Below, one piece after another: positions 48,036 through 62,539 of a stretch of 64,000 nucleotides of DNA (within the stretch, counting starts at the first letter, position 1; every line of letters starts with the position of its first letter). A program made the translations under genes and the position numbers. Below the pieces are notes generated by a model, which was not told the DNA's origin, did not search any database, and saw only the letters and a program-made list of their open reading frames with translations. This stretch comes from a virus. The stretch lies in UHGV virus genome UHGV-0197549. The stretch is one strand, 5' to 3'.

Positions 48036-49076
48036 ATGGCGCTGTCCTTAAACGATACGGAGTTTCTCATCCGGGAGATTACCAAAGAACTGGATGCAAA
48101 GGCGGACGGTGCGGGAAAAAACCTGATTGCCCGGTGCCCCCGTTGCGGGAAAGAAGGAAAGTACGGTGTCTATGTAGGCAAAGAGACACAGCGGAAGAAG
48201 CCGTTCATGTCGCACTGTTTCAGTTGCGGATGTTCGACCTACACGCTGGAAGCATTGCTGGACTTTATAGGCAGGCCGGATTTGATGGTGGCTCCTACGG
48301 CTGACATTGACGCCCGGCTGGATACGAACCTGCTGTTCCCGCTGGAGGAAGGTGAAGAGATAGACGACGCGCTGGGCGTGGTGGAACTGCCGGACTTTTA
48401 CCGGAGATGCTTTACCCACCCTTATCTGAAATCCCGTGGGTTCACCTTCGATGACTACGAGTATTTTCCGGTGGGAACGACAAGGGGGCTCAACTTCCGC
48501 TACGATGATTATGTCGTCTTTCCCATTATTGACGAGGGTGATGTGGTGGGATACGTCTCACGCCACACTTGGAACAAGGACGAGATAGACAGGCATAACA
48601 GCCGGGTAAGGCGCAAGGGCGGATACCGGATACTGCGTTTCAGGAACTCTACGGAGAACGACTTTGTAAAGCTGCTCTATAACTATGATGCGGTAATTGA
48701 AGGCGTTACGGATACGGTAATCATCACGGAGGGGATATTCGACGTGATAGCATTAACAAGAAAACTGGAAATCTATGACAATAAACATGTGGCCGCGGTC
48801 GCCACCTTCGGAAAGAAGATATCCCGCACGCAGATTTACAAGCTGCAATGCAAAGGGGTAAAGACCGTAATACTGGGTTACGATGGAGACGCTGTTGAAG
48901 CCATAAAGAAGACAGCCGGTGAATTGAACGCTTACTTCCGGGTATTTATTGCCGACATACCGGATGCAGGAAAAGATTGGGAGGACCTCGGGGATGAAGA
49001 GATATACGGCATATTCTCTTACCGGTTGAGGACTCCCGCCGAGTACCGACTTTTAAAAGTTCAGGAATTAAAATGA
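48036..49076 (+). CDS. DNA primase (zinc-ribbon + TOPRIM)
   Basis: 346 aa; CPRCG...CFSCGC zinc ribbon; TOPRIM IITEGIFDVIAL and GYDGD. Confidence 0.65.
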   Translation: MALSLNDTEFLIREITKELDAKADGAGKNLIARCPRCGKEGKYGVYVGKETQRKKPFMSHCFSCGCSTYTLEALLDFIGRPDLMVAPTADIDARLDTNLLFPLEEGEEIDDALGVVELPDFYRRCFTHPYLKSRGFTFDDYEYFPVGTTRGLNFRYDDYVVFPIIDEGDVVGYVSRHTWNKDEIDRHNSRVRRKGGYRILRFRNSTENDFVKLLYNYDAVIEGVTDTVIITEGIFDVIALTRKLEIYDNKHVAAVATFGKKISRTQIYKLQCKGVKTVILGYDGDAVEAIKKTAGELNAYFRVFIADIPDAGKDWEDLGDEEIYGIFSYRLRTPAEYRLLKVQELK

Positions 49077-50794
49077 AAGAACTAATCAAATGGCTGGAAG
49101 CCAACAAAATCAAGTATCGACAGATAGACAATGAAGTAGTGGAGATGGAAGGATTGGGAAAGCTCTATGTGGCTGACCTGACGGAGGTGAGATCGGTGTT
49201 CCGGGTGACCGGTGAAGACATCCGGTTCAACCTGATGGAGAGCCCGGAGGTACTGGTTGCCGAGGGGATATTCCATGTGGCGTTCCCGTTCGGGGACAAC
49301 TGGTATTATTATAACCTGACCGAAGGGTTCCGGTTTAATATCCTCAAGTATGCGGGAGTACGGCAGCCTTGTAAAATGCAGGTACCTTTCGCGAATCTGG
49401 GCGTGCATACACCTTTTGAGTTGCTCAACGGTAGCGGAAGCATTGCCGACTGGGTACGGAAAGCGAAGTATCTGGGGCATACGGCACTGGGTATCTGTGA
49501 TAAAAACACAATGGCGGCCACGCTGAATCTACAGAAGGAATGTGCGGCACAGGGAATGAAGCATGTATTCGGATATACGCTGGAAATGGAATACGAAGGG
49601 GAAAAGATAGGGATGAAAGTCTATGCGCAGACACAGCGGGGAATGAGGAACCTGTTGCGCATCCAGAAGGAAATCATGGTGGACTCGGACAACCGGACGC
49701 TATCGCTTCAAGGACTGCTCACCCACGGGGAAGGCAATGTGCTGGTGCTGGGAAAACTCGCTTCCTACTGGATGAAGAAGAACCCGCATATCCTGGGAGC
49801 GATGGGGATTGCATTTGAAAAGGTGTTCTATCAGGTGGATTTGAGCGAATACAAGGCTGAACGTATCGACGTGGAAGTCCTGAAAGCTACCAAGTTCTTT
49901 TTTGATAATTTCTATGACCTACAGACCGGCTCATTTCAGATCGAACCCATTCTGCTTTGTGACACGTATTATCTGGACAAGGACGATGCACGCAACAAGA
50001 TTATCCTCAATAAGATAGCTACCGGGGCGGCCCACCGGCAAAGTGACGACCAGTATTTCAAGGATATAGACGAACACTACGCACTGTTTACTTCTCTCTT
50101 TGACGGGAATAAGTGGGAGCTGGACAGCCTGTTCAGGGGGATGTGCGCCCATACGGTAGAAATTGCCGAGGGGGCGGTTGCCCGTTATGAGACGGACAGG
50201 AACTTCATGCCGCAGTACGATATGACTGACAAGGAAAAACAGAGGTACGGTAACAGGCACCGGATGTTCCTTGAGTTGCTGGAGGAAGGATTCAGAAAGC
50301 TGGTTCCCGCCGGACAGGAAGATGAGTATCGCAAACGGCTGGACTACGAGGTGTATATCCTTGAATCCACCAATAATGTGGACTACATTCTGAATCAGTA
50401 TGATACGGTGAACTGGGCACGGGAGAACGGTATTCTTGTGGGCTGTGGCCGTGGTTCGGCGGGCGGTTCACTGGTACTCTACCTGCTGGGTATCACACTC
50501 ATTGACCCGATTAAATACGATTTGATTTTCGAGCGTTTCCTGCTGCCTGAACGTGCGGGGCTTTATCCGGATGAGGTGACGATCATTGTTGGCGGACTGG
50601 AATCCACAAAGATCGTGCATGTCACCTTAGCCAATGGCAAAGAGTATGTCTTTGACAAGGACGCCAAGTTCCGGGTGATGCGGGAAGGACGCAGCATGAT
50701 AGTCTATGCCGACGAGTTGAAGCTGGGCGATGACATCATCTTTGATAACAGGGATTTGGTATGGACACTTAATGAGACGGTTTATGGTTGTTAA
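49073..50794 (+). CDS. dnaE: DNA polymerase III alpha (DnaE) N-terminal part: PHP + palm start
   Basis: 573 aa; PHP motifs (VHTPFELLNGSGSIADWV...); GCGRGSAGGSLVLYLLGITLIDPIKYDLIFERFLLPER = DnaE signature; then ~77 extra aa and stop. Confidence 0.8.
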   Translation: MKELIKWLEANKIKYRQIDNEVVEMEGLGKLYVADLTEVRSVFRVTGEDIRFNLMESPEVLVAEGIFHVAFPFGDNWYYYNLTEGFRFNILKYAGVRQPCKMQVPFANLGVHTPFELLNGSGSIADWVRKAKYLGHTALGICDKNTMAATLNLQKECAAQGMKHVFGYTLEMEYEGEKIGMKVYAQTQRGMRNLLRIQKEIMVDSDNRTLSLQGLLTHGEGNVLVLGKLASYWMKKNPHILGAMGIAFEKVFYQVDLSEYKAERIDVEVLKATKFFFDNFYDLQTGSFQIEPILLCDTYYLDKDDARNKIILNKIATGAAHRQSDDQYFKDIDEHYALFTSLFDGNKWELDSLFRGMCAHTVEIAEGAVARYETDRNFMPQYDMTDKEKQRYGNRHRMFLELLEEGFRKLVPAGQEDEYRKRLDYEVYILESTNNVDYILNQYDTVNWARENGILVGCGRGSAGGSLVLYLLGITLIDPIKYDLIFERFLLPERAGLYPDEVTIIVGGLESTKIVHVTLANGKEYVFDKDAKFRVMREGRSMIVYADELKLGDDIIFDNRDLVWTLNETVYGC

Positions 50795-53012
50795 GAGTGT
50801 GGAATTTAAACAGACACAGATACCGGTTCAGGCTTTGGATTGCCTGACCGGTAACGGGTTCAGACAAGGAGACGGCGGAAGTCTACCGGATATTGATACC
50901 GACTTCGCTTCGAACAGGCGTCAGGAAGTAAAGGAATACCTGGAGCGTCGTTATAATATGAACGGAAAACAGCGTGTCTTCTCTGCCGGGACTTACTCGA
51001 CAATGAAACTGAAAGCTGCAATAAAAGACGTGTGCAGGGTATATAAAGTCCCTGTCAGTTATGTGAATTATATTACCGCCATTTTCGAGGATGACAACAT
51101 GAGTTGGACAGACCTGTTCATGTTTGCGACAACCAATAAGAAAGTAAACAAGTTCGTACAGGATTACCCGCAGGTGATTGAGGACATACGGGGACTGATG
51201 GGGCAACCGCGTTCGGCTTCCGTACATGCTTCGGCAATCATTGTTACACCGAACTCAAAGGACGGTGAGGATATGGAGTGCTTCGATTTTACTCCCATCA
51301 AGAAGGTGGACGATATTCTGGTATCGGAACTGGACGGGTATTCCATTGATGAAACGGGATTGTTGAAGAATGACTGTTTGGGCATCAAGGAACTTGCCAA
51401 GATACAGTCGGTCATAGATGAAAGTAACCGTGTGTATAATGCAGGCATCTCTTTTGAAGGGCTCGTCCGCAGCGGACTGGATGATGAGAAAACCTACCGG
51501 ATACTCGCCAAAGGGTACACCCAGAACGTTTTCCAGTTCAGCTCCGCAGGAATGACCAAGTTCCTGATGGATATGCAACCGGACTGCATCAATGATTTGA
51601 TTGCCGCCAATGCCTTGTATCGTCCGGCTACACTGGAATCGGGTTCTACTCAAAAGTATTTGGATTGTAAAAGAGGTGAAGTGGCTCCCGTATATCTGTG
51701 GGGAACTTATAATGCGCTAAAAGGTACGTACGGGCAATTAACATATCAGGAAGACCTGGCGCAAATGGCGAGGGAAATAGGTGGCTTTTCATTGGGAGAA
51801 GGTGTAAATCTCGTTAAGTATATATCAAAAAAGAAAGTCGAAAAAATTCATGCAATGAGGGATAAGTTTATGTCGGGAGCTCACGAAAAGGGATGCCCGA
51901 AAGAAGACGCAGACCTCATTTGGGATATGATTGAGGCGGGCGGTTCCTATATTTTTAACAAATCGCACGCAACGGCTTATGCCATCACATCGTATGTAGG
52001 TGCCTGGCTGAAAGCCAATTACCCGACTGCCTTCTACACCATCGCCCTGCAATGGGCGGATGACAAGGAACTCCCGCTTATCATGTCGGAAATGGAAGAA
52101 TGCAGTTCTGCCAAGGTGGTGCCGCCCGATATTAACACCTCAGCCGAAAAGTTCTTCACGGATTACCGGACGAATGAAATCTTCTGGTCGCTGGGTAAGA
52201 TAAAGATACTGGGAACCAAAGCGGTGCAATACATCATTGACGAGCGCACCAAAGGCGGTCCGTTTAAATCAATCGAGAACTTTATACACCGTATATTCAA
52301 ATACAAGCTGAAAAAGTACGAATACTGGGATGATGCGGATAATGAGCAGGAGGCCGTTAGGGTTCCCGTCAATGCACGTCACGTAAAGAACCTGATTCTT
52401 GCCGGTTGCTTCGATAAGGTAAGCAATATCAGTGCCGTTGTGGAAAGGTATTCGATACTGGATAAGGCGGCTACGGAACTGGGATTCAAGATTCCCACCG
52501 GTGACTATCCCGACCACCTGATTAACCAGCATTACTTCTGGAGTATGCAGCAGATCGAGGTCTGTGGCATCGGGCGGATTGACTACAAGCGGATATATGA
52601 TAACTCCTATTGCCGCCACCAGTTCAAAGGGCGGGCATCCTATTCTACCGTACATAACGCGCTCCTGTCCGGAAGCGAAGGAAAGAAGGTCGCCCTTTGC
52701 GCGACTGTTACGGAAATGGAGGAAATCTCCTACAAGGACAAAAAGACGGGAGAAAGGAAGCACCTCTGCAAACTGCATCTCCAACAGAACAACGACCTGA
52801 TAAAGCTCGTATGCTGGAATGACTTCTACATAGAGAATAAAACGGAACTCCAGGATATAAAAGGTAAGATTGTCATCGTATCGGCAATCGTCAAGTACAA
52901 TGACTACAGCGGAGGCAACAGCCTGAATACCTACAAGACTTCCCGGCTATTCACACTTAACCAATCATCAGAAAATCAAATAAACCAAGAAGATGGCAGC
53001 ACCAAAAAATGA
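50730..53012 (+). CDS. dnaE: DNA polymerase III alpha (DnaE) C-terminal part
   Basis: 760 aa in +1 frame; LPDIDTDFASNRRQEVKEYLERRY continues the DnaE motif (..PDIDTDF...); frame closed upstream by TGA 50718-50720. Confidence 0.8.
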   Translation: MTSSLITGIWYGHLMRRFMVVKSVEFKQTQIPVQALDCLTGNGFRQGDGGSLPDIDTDFASNRRQEVKEYLERRYNMNGKQRVFSAGTYSTMKLKAAIKDVCRVYKVPVSYVNYITAIFEDDNMSWTDLFMFATTNKKVNKFVQDYPQVIEDIRGLMGQPRSASVHASAIIVTPNSKDGEDMECFDFTPIKKVDDILVSELDGYSIDETGLLKNDCLGIKELAKIQSVIDESNRVYNAGISFEGLVRSGLDDEKTYRILAKGYTQNVFQFSSAGMTKFLMDMQPDCINDLIAANALYRPATLESGSTQKYLDCKRGEVAPVYLWGTYNALKGTYGQLTYQEDLAQMAREIGGFSLGEGVNLVKYISKKKVEKIHAMRDKFMSGAHEKGCPKEDADLIWDMIEAGGSYIFNKSHATAYAITSYVGAWLKANYPTAFYTIALQWADDKELPLIMSEMEECSSAKVVPPDINTSAEKFFTDYRTNEIFWSLGKIKILGTKAVQYIIDERTKGGPFKSIENFIHRIFKYKLKKYEYWDDADNEQEAVRVPVNARHVKNLILAGCFDKVSNISAVVERYSILDKAATELGFKIPTGDYPDHLINQHYFWSMQQIEVCGIGRIDYKRIYDNSYCRHQFKGRASYSTVHNALLSGSEGKKVALCATVTEMEEISYKDKKTGERKHLCKLHLQQNNDLIKLVCWNDFYIENKTELQDIKGKIVIVSAIVKYNDYSGGNSLNTYKTSRLFTLNQSSENQINQEDGSTKK

Positions 53013-60251: not shown

Positions 60252-60695
60252 ATGAAACTCACACTAAAACGAAAGTTCGTCGGTGACAAATACACCGTTG
60301 GAGATTTATTCATTGACGGTAAGTTCTTCTGCAACGCAATTGAGGATACAGTAAGAAAACTTCCGGTTATTTGTCCTTATACCTCCAAAGGACAATCCTG
60401 TAAATGCAAAGAGAAAATCTATGCGCAGACTGCCATTTCAGCTGGAACGTATAAAGTAACCATGGAATACAGTCCACGATTCAAACGCAAGTTGCCACTC
60501 CTACATAATGTACCTCACTTCATTGGGATTCTCATTCATAGCGGTACCACGGAAATAGATTCAGCCGGCTGTTTAATTGTTGGGAATAACACCATCAAAG
60601 GCAAGGTAACTGAATCACGTGCCACCTCCGACAAGTTGAACGCCATTCTATCCAAAGAAAAACACATCACAATCGAAATAATCAATGGCAAGTAA
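60252..60695 (+). CDS. hypothetical protein (HSG...SAGC motif reminiscent of L,D-transpeptidase/YkuD-fold active site; tentative)
   Basis: 147 aa; IGILIHSGTTEIDSAGCLIVGNN; overlaps terL exon 1 start by 11 nt. Confidence 0.4.
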   Translation: MKLTLKRKFVGDKYTVGDLFIDGKFFCNAIEDTVRKLPVICPYTSKGQSCKCKEKIYAQTAISAGTYKVTMEYSPRFKRKLPLLHNVPHFIGILIHSGTTEIDSAGCLIVGNNTIKGKVTESRATSDKLNAILSKEKHITIEIINGK

Positions 60696-62539
60696 AAAGT
60701 TGGTCCCACCTAAGAACCTTCACATCGACTTCAAGCCTTCACCTAAACAGTATGAACTCTGGAAACTACTCCAGCCTGAATGCCCGTTATGTGGAGGTGA
60801 AATCGAACAGAAGCTGATAGGCTACGACACCAATCACAACCCCAAGTATAAGCCGCACTGCATCAAGTGTGGCAATTCCAATATACCGCAACTCATTCTG
60901 GGTGGCGGTGCCGCTGGTAAACGATTCCTCTGCCAGCCTATGCAGTAATGCATAGAAAACAATCTCTTTAATTGCTGGAAACTCTGACCGCATAATGGCG
61001 AAGACAATCAGCAGCCAAGCCGGTTCAGCCGGAAGGTTCAACGGCTATCCGAAAGGAGTACGGTCAAGCGACCGGAAATGGGAGACTCCTTAGTCAGCTA
61101 AGGATGAAGATATAGTCTCATCTGCATGGAAACATGCAGCAGCGAAAGCGGTCACACCGTAGCGAAGTGTGGCGAAGAAATACCAAATGGGTGGAAAATC
61201 GTATTTGGCAAGTGTTTGGCTTGTGAGTAGTTGTATTAGATTTCCGGATGTGCGTGCAATAGTGGCGAGAAAGACGTTGAAATCTTTAAAGGAAAGTACC
61301 TGGAATACAATCCGTATGATTATTAAGGGCTGGGGGCTCGTTGAAGATGTGAACTATCATATTAACAGCGTAGCCGGAACTCTTCGGTTTTGGAATGATT
61401 CAGTAATTCTGATGCTTGATTTAGCCGATTTACCCTCGGACCCAAATTTCGAGCGTTTTGGTTCAATGGAAGCAACGATTGCGGCATGTGATGAGGTTTC
61501 GGAAGTTAGTCAGAAAGCAATTGAAGTATTGTTTTCTCGTTTACGATGGAAGACACACGAGACATTCAAAGTTTCTAAAATGCTCCTTACAACCAATCCG
61601 ACAACCAACTGGGTAAGAACCCGATTCGTACAAGACGAAAACGGAGACAAGACAGTTACACGTGAAGGTGAGTTTTATGTTCCCTTCAGTGTATTCGACA
61701 ATCCCGACATCGCCTTCCGCCAAACCTACGAAGCCGCTCTAAACAAGATCAGCGACCAGGCAACGAAAGAGCGACTACTTTACGGTAACTGGGACTTTGT
61801 AGAGGCAAACGACATGGCGCTCTACAATCAGTTCGACGGGACCAGGCATTTGATTACCGGACTGAAAGAAAAGGTATATGACCCAACTAAGCCGCTGATC
61901 GTTGTGTGGGACTTCAACGTTGCACCTTATATGTCTACCCTGTTAGTTCAGATTGACTACGACAAGAAGAAGGTATATATTATCGAAGAGATACTGGGAA
62001 AGGCAGAGGATAAAGAGAATAACACACCATCACTCGCCCGAAAAATCAAAAAGAAGATGTACCGTCAAAAACACATCGGAGGCTTGGATATAACAGGCGA
62101 CCCAGCCGGACTCCAACGTTCAACCACCAACGAAGACGGCGTGAATAACTATACGATAATAAATGAGACGTTGGGCAAAGGGATACTGCGCCCAAAAATC
62201 AAACTCCTGAAGAAGCAACCGCCACAGGCACCACGTTGTGAGTTTGTGAATGAAGTTTTCAAAGGTTACAACGGTTGGGAAATAATGATTGACCTGCGTT
62301 GCCGGAAACTTACACAGGACTTAATCTATCAGCTAAAGAACGAGGACGGAAGCAAAGGAAAGCCTAAAGTAACGGACTCTAAAACCGGAGTGAAGTACGA
62401 AAAGTACGGTCACTTGTCAGATTGCCTTGATTATTTGCTTTGCTATTATCTTAGAGATGCGTGGTATAAGTTCAAGAGCGGTGACGATAGCGGCAGCATC
62501 CTTTCTACAGCTACCATTTCAGAAGGATTTAACTACTAA
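60685..62539 (+). CDS. terL: terminase large subunit, interrupted by group I intron (exon 1 60685..60918, exon 2 61190..62539)
   Basis: exon 1 ends in P-loop LILGGGAAG(K); exon 2 (LLTTNPTTNWVRTRF; VVWDFNVAPYMSTLLVQIDYD...YIIEEI nuclease-like) lacks a P-loop; splice predicted to give GAAGGGKS. Confidence 0.65.
60919..61189 (+). ncRNA. group I self-splicing intron (no internal ORF), boundaries +/- a few nt
   Basis: IGS GCCAGC (60933-60938) pairs with exon end GCUGGU (U.G at splice site); GCAGCCAAGCC (cf. Tetrahymena GCAGCCAAGUCC); P7 halves GGCUAU/AUAGUC within ACGGCUAUCC...GAUGAAGAUAUAGUCUCAUC (AAGAUAUAGUC also in Tetrahymena and T4 td introns); terminal G at 61189. Confidence 0.6.

Follow-up and report, generated by a model that had tools for sequence, protein, structure and literature searches.

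A predicted compact group I intron interrupting the Walker A motif of the large-terminase gene in a Bacteroidales phage

Introduction

Group I introns in essential phage genes are a classical observation, and the peripheral elements P2, P7.1, P7.2, P9.1, and P9.2 are known to stabilise those of subgroup IA that phages carry. The large-terminase gene of the Lactobacillus delbrueckii phage LL-H, which has a Firmicutes host, reportedly contains a group I intron as well. The subject of this work is a putative intron of the same class in the virus genome UHGV-0197549, of which one stretch of 64,000 nucleotides (nt) was analysed (hereafter the window); the element interrupts the terminase large-subunit gene, terL, inside the codons of the ATP-binding Walker A motif. 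The subgroup-IA systems with which it is compared are the td, nrdB, and nrdD introns of T4, the DNA-polymerase intron of the Bacillus phage SPO1 with its endonuclease I-HmuI, and the Bacillus phiNIT1/SPG24-type introns. Over 200 nt, the core of the window intron is ~70-72% identical to introns from Bacillus, Campylobacter, Staphylococcus, Xanthomonas, Vibrio, T4-like, and other phages. With the phage IA introns it shares the helices P7.1 and P7.2 between P7 and the 3' strand of P3 and the insertion into a highly conserved motif of an essential gene. The likeness extends to a relative of the window intron at locus L052, which encodes an HNH protein whose best solved-structure match, with equivalent residues but weak (E = 0.003), is the SPO1 intron HNH endonuclease I-HmuI (1U3E). 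The window intron differs from the phage IA introns in its Bacteroidota phage context, in its position at the Walker A site of terL, and in the lack of an endonuclease open reading frame (ORF).

Interruptions of terL have been described in gut phages. In the Jug phages of Bacteroides/Phocaeicola, terL is split by group I introns whose splicing is backed by metatranscriptome reads (PMC12880540); these resemble the window intron in host order, in gene, in their short length (~206 nt on average), and in the absence of an endonuclease, but they belong to a jumbo lineage of 360-402 kilobases (kb), whereas the window represents a ~60-110-kb phage/prophage group with a Terminase_3-type TerL. In crAss-like phages, core genes host group I introns and inteins, and the TerL of the Delta group “typically contains an intein” (PMC7886860). 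Such P-loop inteins, found in that study and in relatives of the window phage, are selfish elements at the same ATP-binding motif as the window intron; they differ in that splicing occurs at the protein level, in the LAGLIDADG endonuclease, and in being in-frame insertions of ~1.0-1.1 kb, and none is present in the window. Given these publications, the view of the first-pass annotation of this DNA that a terL intron would be unusual for a Bacteroidales phage is weak. A gut phage survey also notes that mobile introns have inserted into terminase genes and broken them up (10.1101/2021.08.26.457843). The terL of the Escherichia coli Vequintavirus RudolfGeigy (MZ501102), annotated as a three-piece join, offers 69% identity to the window intron core in the same gene, but its intron lies ~1.1 kb into the gene and not at Walker A, and its TerL family is unrelated; the two were therefore rejected as the same element. 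A literature search in a limited library returned no description of the present intron lineage or of the Walker A insertion site in terL.

Results

The interrupted terL gene and its spliced product

The segment 60919..61189 (+) is very probably a group I intron, of a type (subgroup IA) that is frequent in phages, and is placed inside the Walker A codons of terL; it is 271 nt long and IA-like in having P7.1 and P7.2. The Rfam covariance model RF00028 (Intron_gpI) matches 60909..61139 (+) over its whole length (model 1-253 of 253) with 86 bits (E = 2.8e-22) against a gathering score of 50 bits, which bears out the group I assignment first made from short strings. These strings are all present: the exon end GCTGGT at 60913-60918, GCAGCCAAGCC at 61011-61021, ACGGCTATCC at 61041-61050, and GATGAAGATATAGTCTCATC at 61102-61121. 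RF00028 is the sole Rfam family above threshold in the 64-kb window, and the 291 nt around the intron fold at -95 kcal/mol (z = -3.7 relative to shuffles). A snoU30 match at 60941-60975 scores only 19 bits where 45 would be required (E = 1.8) and was taken as chance, while a tRNA search of the whole window found none.

Without splicing, the gene reads as two ORFs on the plus strand. The upstream ORF, 60685..60948, has a zinc-ribbon-like N-terminus and a protein end …IPQLILGGGAAGKRFLCQPMQ / …NIPQLILGGGAAGKRFLCQPMQ before its stop codon, and the downstream ORF, 61169..62539, starts with MAKKYQMGGKSYL… / MAKKYQMGGKSYLASVWLV… and encodes the remainder of the large subunit. The latter opens at GTG 61169; the ATG at 61187-61189, previously named as its start and as the final three intron bases, has indeed the second property but is internal to the ORF. 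Joining 60685..60918 to 61190..62539 yields a TerL of 527 amino acids (aa), in which exon 1 (60685..60918, +) supplies codons 1-78, with the CxxC…CxxC zinc-ribbon-like N-terminus and the first half of Walker A (…LILGGGAAG), and exon 2 (61190..62539, +) supplies codons 79-527 and the stop (GGKSYLASVWLV…). The intron sits between codons 78 and 79.

The spliced product matches Pfam Terminase_3 (E = 1.2e-11) and aligns without gaps at the junction to the TerL of Bacteroides phage BS-TP1, which is uninterrupted, 527 aa long, and a member of the same TerL family (LILGGGAAGGGKSYL vs MILCGGAAGGGKSYL). With a slash marking the junction, the spliced protein reads …LILGGGAAG/GGKSYL…, where homologues are continuous, and uninterrupted homologues of 527-530 aa are up to 97-99% identical to it. 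Exon 1 in turn aligns to residues 1-78 of uninterrupted TerL, with 59% identity for BS-TP1 and 97% for protein P0002. The agreement holds at the DNA level, with GCC GCT GGT GGT GGA AAG in BS-TP1 vs GCC GCT GGT/GGT GGA AAA in the spliced window; the predicted junction is GCCGCUGGU/GGUGGAAAAUCG (longer form GGUGCCGCUGGU/GGUGGAAAAUCG), and the intronless form of the site is …GGTGCCGCTGGTGGTGGAAAATCG…. This gapless alignment upholds the earlier proposal that splicing creates a Walker A motif, GxxxxGKS, that neither ORF holds alone. Since neither unspliced ORF has a Walker A and the terminase is essential for packaging, the phage would need splicing.

Stop codons occur in all three frames within 60919..61189, and the segment is not an in-frame insertion translated with the host protein, as an intein would be. 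Three database proteins of 444-450 aa (P0016, P0096, and P0103) are gene calls of exon 2 only, and on their contigs the corresponding position is occupied by an intron that Rfam recognises (71-85 bits). Comparison with the nearest relatives indicates that both exons are functional and under purifying selection, because their protein is 99% identical while their DNA is only ~92-95% identical.

Covariation and helix architecture

Relatives of the window TerL are encoded at 80 loci of IMG/VR and 25 loci of genomes, which were classified, and 15 distinct endonuclease-less introns from related phages and prophages were aligned; the pairing counts in this section refer to these 15 copies. RNAalifold, unaided, recovers P1, P2, P3, P4, P5, P7.1, P7.2, P8, P9, and a 3' hairpin, with compensatory change in 30 of 71 pairs. 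A canonical structure was written by hand, including P6 and the P3/P7 pseudoknot, and its pairs were then counted: 97.4% of cells are paired, against 31-42% in slid controls, compensatory change affects 31 of 75 pairs against 4-8, and the covariation score is 0.316 against 0.05-0.07. On four of five measures, none of 500 shuffles reaches the observed value; the fifth, the number of additional pair types, is unremarkable, the observed count being reached by 410 of 500 shuffles.

All helices lie on the plus strand. P1 (60913..60937) joins the exon end and first intron base (60913-60919) to the internal guide at 60931-60937 and is 100% paired, and it is followed by the P2 hairpin (60938..60955), which has a GUAA loop and compensatory change in five of its seven pairs. 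P3 pairs 60963-60968 with 61080-61085, and its span, 60963..61085, encloses P4 (60973-78 / 61008-13), P5 (60983-85 / 61002-04), P5a (60989-91 / 60998-61000), P6 (61014-16 / 61035-37), P6a (61020-23 / 61029-32), the 5' strand of P7, P7.1 (61048-50 / 61055-57), and P7.2 (61061-65 / 61070-74). Each of the helices P3, P4, P5, P5a, P6, P6a, P7.1, and P7.2 has at least one compensatory pair (one in P7.1 and three in P7.2).

P7 forms between GGCUA at 61043-61047 and UAGUC at 61113-61117, making a pseudoknot with P3 in agreement with the Rfam consensus and with the GGCUAU/AUAGUC halves picked out in the first-pass annotation; the J8/7 and P7 string is GAUGAAGAUAUAGUC. This helix is 100% paired, but it provides little independent test, as four of its five pairs are invariant and only one strand varies at the fifth, which is G·U in the window and L034 and A-U in the other copies. 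Downstream, the P8 hairpin (61087..61104) is 90.5% paired with two compensatory pairs, and the P9 hairpin (61122..61139), with a GAAA loop and four of seven pairs compensatory, is where the Rfam model ends. Beyond it, a 3' extension (61142..61173) holds a short P9.1 (61142-43 / 61148-49) and the P9.2 hairpin (61151-57 / 61167-73), which has the conserved loop CGUAGCGAA and compensatory change in six of seven pairs. The 50 nt past the end of the model belong to the intron.

The P7.1/P7.2 region is a 29-nt insertion relative to the Rfam consensus, between the 5' strand of P7 and the 3' strand of P3, and this architecture, read with what is generally known of IA introns, points to subgroup IA. 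The UAGCGA loop of P9.2 is common at the same distance among phage introns; as a marker of a terL-specific lineage it was rejected, since the motif pair has at least 120 matches across many unrelated phage contigs.

Splice sites and predicted splicing pathway

The 5' splice site is placed after U60918, which forms a U·G wobble in P1 with G60932, conserved in 15 of 15 copies. The guide GCCAGC pairs with the exon end as the first-pass annotation had it, although at 60932-60937 and not one base further on (60933-60938). P1 itself covaries: the exon GCUGGU with the guide GCCAGC in the window is replaced by GCCGGU with GCCGGC in three other copies, a U-A to C-G change. The P10 guide strand UUCCUCU (60925..60931, +) faces the first seven bases of exon 2, GGUGGAA (61190-61196); six of the seven pairs form in the window, with one U·U mismatch, and position 3 covaries among copies, an exon U going with a guide A or an exon A with a guide U.

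The 3' splice site is assigned to the terminal guanosine (omega-G) at 61189 (+). A G stands directly before GGN GGN AAR in every copy inspected (22 of 22, namely 16 and 6 more), despite the variable tail that precedes it. The gapless TerL match, the invariant G, and the covarying P10 all favour G61189 as proposed earlier; it is not, as also claimed, the sole in-frame G, because with the 5' site at 60918 the frame is also left open by G61162, 61171, 61174, 61177, 61201, and 61207. When all U…G combinations that keep the frame open are compared, only 60918/61189 gives both GxxxxGKS and a gapless match to homologues. G61139, the end of the Rfam model, was rejected as a 3' site, as the frame then reaches a TAG at 61160.

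We infer that splicing follows the standard group I pathway. The pre-mRNA would fold into P1-P9.2, and an external guanosine bound at P7 would attack after U60918, held in P1 as a U·G pair with G60932. The freed 3'-OH of exon 1 would then attack after omega-G61189, with P10 aligning exon 2, and the ligated mRNA would encode the 527-aa TerL with an intact P-loop, GAAGGGKS. Unspliced RNA would yield only an 87-aa fragment, or an ATPase without half of its P-loop.

Distribution and mobility

The intron form of 260-286 nt occurs at the identical site in 16 of the 80 viral loci and 6 of the 25 genome loci. Every intron at least 78% identical to that of the window lies in the same TerL family at the same site, and more distant ones lie in other genes of other phages. 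At L034 and L177, on other contigs, the introns are 97-98.5% identical to the window intron. Presence and absence vary among loci whose TerL are 99% identical, with the intron in L013, L034, and L177 and none in L006 and L087.

Over most of the gene, the intron-bearing L034 and the intronless L006/L087 are equally near to the window (97% and 94%), while between -60 and +30 nt around the site L034 is 100% identical to it and L006/L087 only 73%. The exon patch around the site appears to travel with the intron, in a co-conversion-like manner. A comparison of window positions 60708-61207 with L006/L087 places dense divergence from about -211 to +17 around the site, identity falling to 73% over the final 60 nt of exon 1; directly downstream of this tract, whose end lies at +17 in the comparison with L006, the window is ~97% identical to L006/L087. 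A recombination boundary therefore adjoins the insertion site. Similarity between introns does not track that between exons: the introns of L005 and L080 are 86% identical and their exons 62%; between L005 and the window, the introns are 67% and the exons 75% identical. These patterns indicate that the intron is mobile, or was so until recently.

The window copy itself has no ORF of more than 34 aa wholly inside the intron on the same strand, and a tblastn search of the window with the L052 HNH protein gave nothing better than E = 0.3, whereby an endonuclease from elsewhere in the window was rejected. The absence of a homing endonuclease ORF from this intron, stated in the first-pass annotation, thus holds; the ORF expected of a mobile intron is present in L052. 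At this locus (L052:1742-2563, IMGVR_UViG_3300000839_000760), an intron of 822 nt with the same ends and site has an ORF of ~167 aa in P6, which matches Pfam HNH_3 (E = 7.7e-10) and includes two N bases in the contig. L052 is presumably the autonomous form of the endonuclease-less intron of the window, and the window copy would be a shortened representative of a mobile, site-specific lineage that in its complete state bears the I-HmuI-like HNH ORF in P6.

The hosts of the relatives, represented by genomes and metagenome-assembled genomes (MAGs), are Bacteroides, Alistipes, Parabacteroides, Butyricimonas, Rikenellaceae, and Muribaculaceae; because they are often on large chromosomal contigs, the relatives are considered prophages. 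Three cultured strains have intron-bearing alleles: Bacteroides graminisolvens DSM 19988 (L099), Bacteroides neonati MS4 (L111), and Alistipes sp. i18-0019-D1 (L110).

Other occupants of the Walker A codons in relatives

Three kinds of interruption fall within four Walker A codons of this TerL family. The intron lies between G78 and G79; 9 nt further downstream, an in-frame LAGLIDADG_3/Hom_end intein of ~1.0-1.1 kb separates K81 from S82. The intein is carried by loci L043, L044, L045, and L097 and by proteins of ~896 aa, namely P0020 (B. fragilis), P0025, and ~25 others; it starts with Met or Ala, not Cys or Ser, and ends …THN/S. No locus among those classified has intron and intein in one gene. 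In one Alistipes MAG the two occur apart, the intein at L097 on one contig and the intron at L098 on another.

The third kind is an insert of 5 nt (TGAGC or TAGGC) or 6 nt (TAAGGT) between G80 and K81, found at eight loci in four lineages: L028:2735-2746; L053:673-683, with L054, L055, and L102 the same; L069:2735-2745, with L106 the same; and L078:2735-2745. The insert always places a stop right after the Gly codon, UGA, UAG, and UAA all being used, and its omission restores GGGAAGGGKS. Both ORFs are open in these lineages, with no further stops in 447 codons, and codon differences are 169 synonymous vs 55 non-synonymous in one pair and 97 vs 19 in another; both ORFs are under purifying selection. 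A hairpin of -25 to -29 kcal/mol, with arms CCCCCAGC and GCUGGGGG, ends 4 nt before the stop in all eight insert alleles and in none of 103 others, and it is built wholly from synonymous codon choices.

The stop inserts with their hairpin look like a programmed recoding signal and are candidates for a ribosomal hop or a frameshift; a +5/+6 hop is our best guess. A -1 frameshift far upstream was rejected, as it would turn the strand QLILGGG into PADPRRRR. For the terminase of Streptomyces phage Hau3, bypassing has been proposed for 10-nt inserts with mass spectrometry support in E. coli (PMC10732093); the present alleles are alike in having a terminase insert that a proposed bypass would skip, and differ in its length (5-6 nt vs 10 nt).

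A wider reading makes the codons G78-S82 a contested landing pad. Its alternative occupants, in no case seen together, would be the intron in its bare or HNH-bearing form, the intein, and the stop insert, whose alleles would need the +5/+6 hop. Each occupant would disrupt the homing-endonuclease target of the others, and the endonuclease-less intron of the window would persist partly by protecting the site. This reading is speculative and rather unlikely in its entirety.

Genomic context and irregular homologues

The window resembles a tailed phage genome, with a tape-measure-like protein, an SbcC/Rad50-like ATPase, and a DnaE-type polymerase. Directly upstream of terL, and overlapping its start by 11 nt, is a DUF5675 gene (60252-60695, +; Pfam E = 3.5e-27), which occupies the place where the small terminase subunit might be expected and adjoins terL in intron-bearing and intronless alleles alike (L002, L003, L005). 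The gene for the DnaE-type DNA polymerase III alpha subunit (49073-53012, +) is broken into the ORFs 49073..50794 and 50730..53012, which overlap and are read in different frames. The second could start at ATG 50772, and the Pfam DNA_pol3_alpha model spans the break (profile 4-100, then 97-260). No Rfam intron lies there, so either the gene is split or frameshifted or the break is a sequencing error.

A few TerL homologues have irregular lengths. P0001 (674 aa) and P0004 (616 aa) contain an internal tandem duplication of ~90-150 residues, and P0111 (779 aa) is fused in frame to the product of the downstream gene (…EGFNYQLMYRRFLNN…). The three are probably assembly artefacts or cases of stop-codon loss.

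Discussion

The Rfam match, the covarying fold, and the junction that restores a continuous P-loop converge on a group I intron in terL; both its splicing in vivo and its route of spread we infer from sequence. Some points weigh against this account. In the window copy, P7 contains a G·U in place of the A-U of most copies and P10 contains a U·U mismatch, mild defects that could lower efficiency. Because neither the intron nor the window includes an endonuclease gene, this copy could at present move only with an enzyme supplied in trans or through ordinary recombination, and an intron identity above exon identity may partly reflect structural constraint, not transfer. Lastly, an empty-site or spliced-junction allele with the exact flanks of the window has no matches in IMG/VR (37-mer) or in JGI metagenome contigs (27-mer).

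One alternative is that the intron is a remnant no longer able to splice and that terL has become a pseudogene, in a degenerate phage or a defective prophage, considering that the endonuclease gene is lost, that P7 and P10 are imperfect in the window, and that many relatives are prophages in bacterial genomes. Every core helix is nevertheless intact in the window, with pairs kept in the family by compensatory change, both exons are open and show the 99% protein vs ~92-95% DNA identity of purifying selection, and L034 and L177 bear nearly the same intron (97-98.5%) on other contigs; with helices intact and exons constrained, decay is very unlikely. Less improbable, yet still given a low probability, is a variant of the intron interpretation in which the intron is genuine but unable to self-splice, needing a host or phage protein cofactor, or splices only at a particular stage and so gates the timing of terminase production. 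Some group I introns need protein cofactors, the terminase is a late function, and the slightly weakened P7 and P10 of the window would suit such a variant; conversely, nothing in the sequence calls for a cofactor, P2, P7.1, P7.2, P9.1, and P9.2 are all present and covarying, and there is no maturase-like ORF in the intron.

The remaining alternative dispenses with splicing altogether, the two ORFs being translated separately into a two-piece terminase and the RNA between them being merely intron-like. Gene callers do report two ORFs in relatives (87 aa and 450 aa), and exon 2 is closely preceded by an ATG and a GTG, but the break falls inside the P-loop (GAAG/GGKS) and leaves neither piece with a Walker A, uninterrupted homologues run continuously through it, and the model gives no role to the 271 nt in between, with their complete and covarying group I fold. 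Because the break bisects the P-loop, a two-piece terminase is extremely unlikely, and a group I intron that splices terL is the preferred interpretation.

Elements of this kind are well known, and the intron is an ordinary one that a routine Rfam scan finds; it leaves the current understanding of group I introns unchanged. Its practical weight lies in annotation: in many gut metagenome assemblies, gene callers split terL into ORFs of 87 aa and ~450 aa, and among the gene calls that cover exon 2 alone, one cluster comprises 107 proteins, while a different protein appears in the index of 115 blocks of the collection. Recognition of the intron restores a hallmark phage gene used in classification and phylogeny. 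Splicing is directly testable because cultured strains carry intron-bearing alleles. For the biology of these viruses, the intron adds a temperate Bacteroidales phage/prophage lineage of Bacteroides, Alistipes, Parabacteroides, Butyricimonas, and Rikenellaceae to the phages with group I introns in terL, and it offers a compact natural system for the competition of selfish elements, in which an intron with or without HNH, an intein, and the uninterrupted gene occur at one motif.

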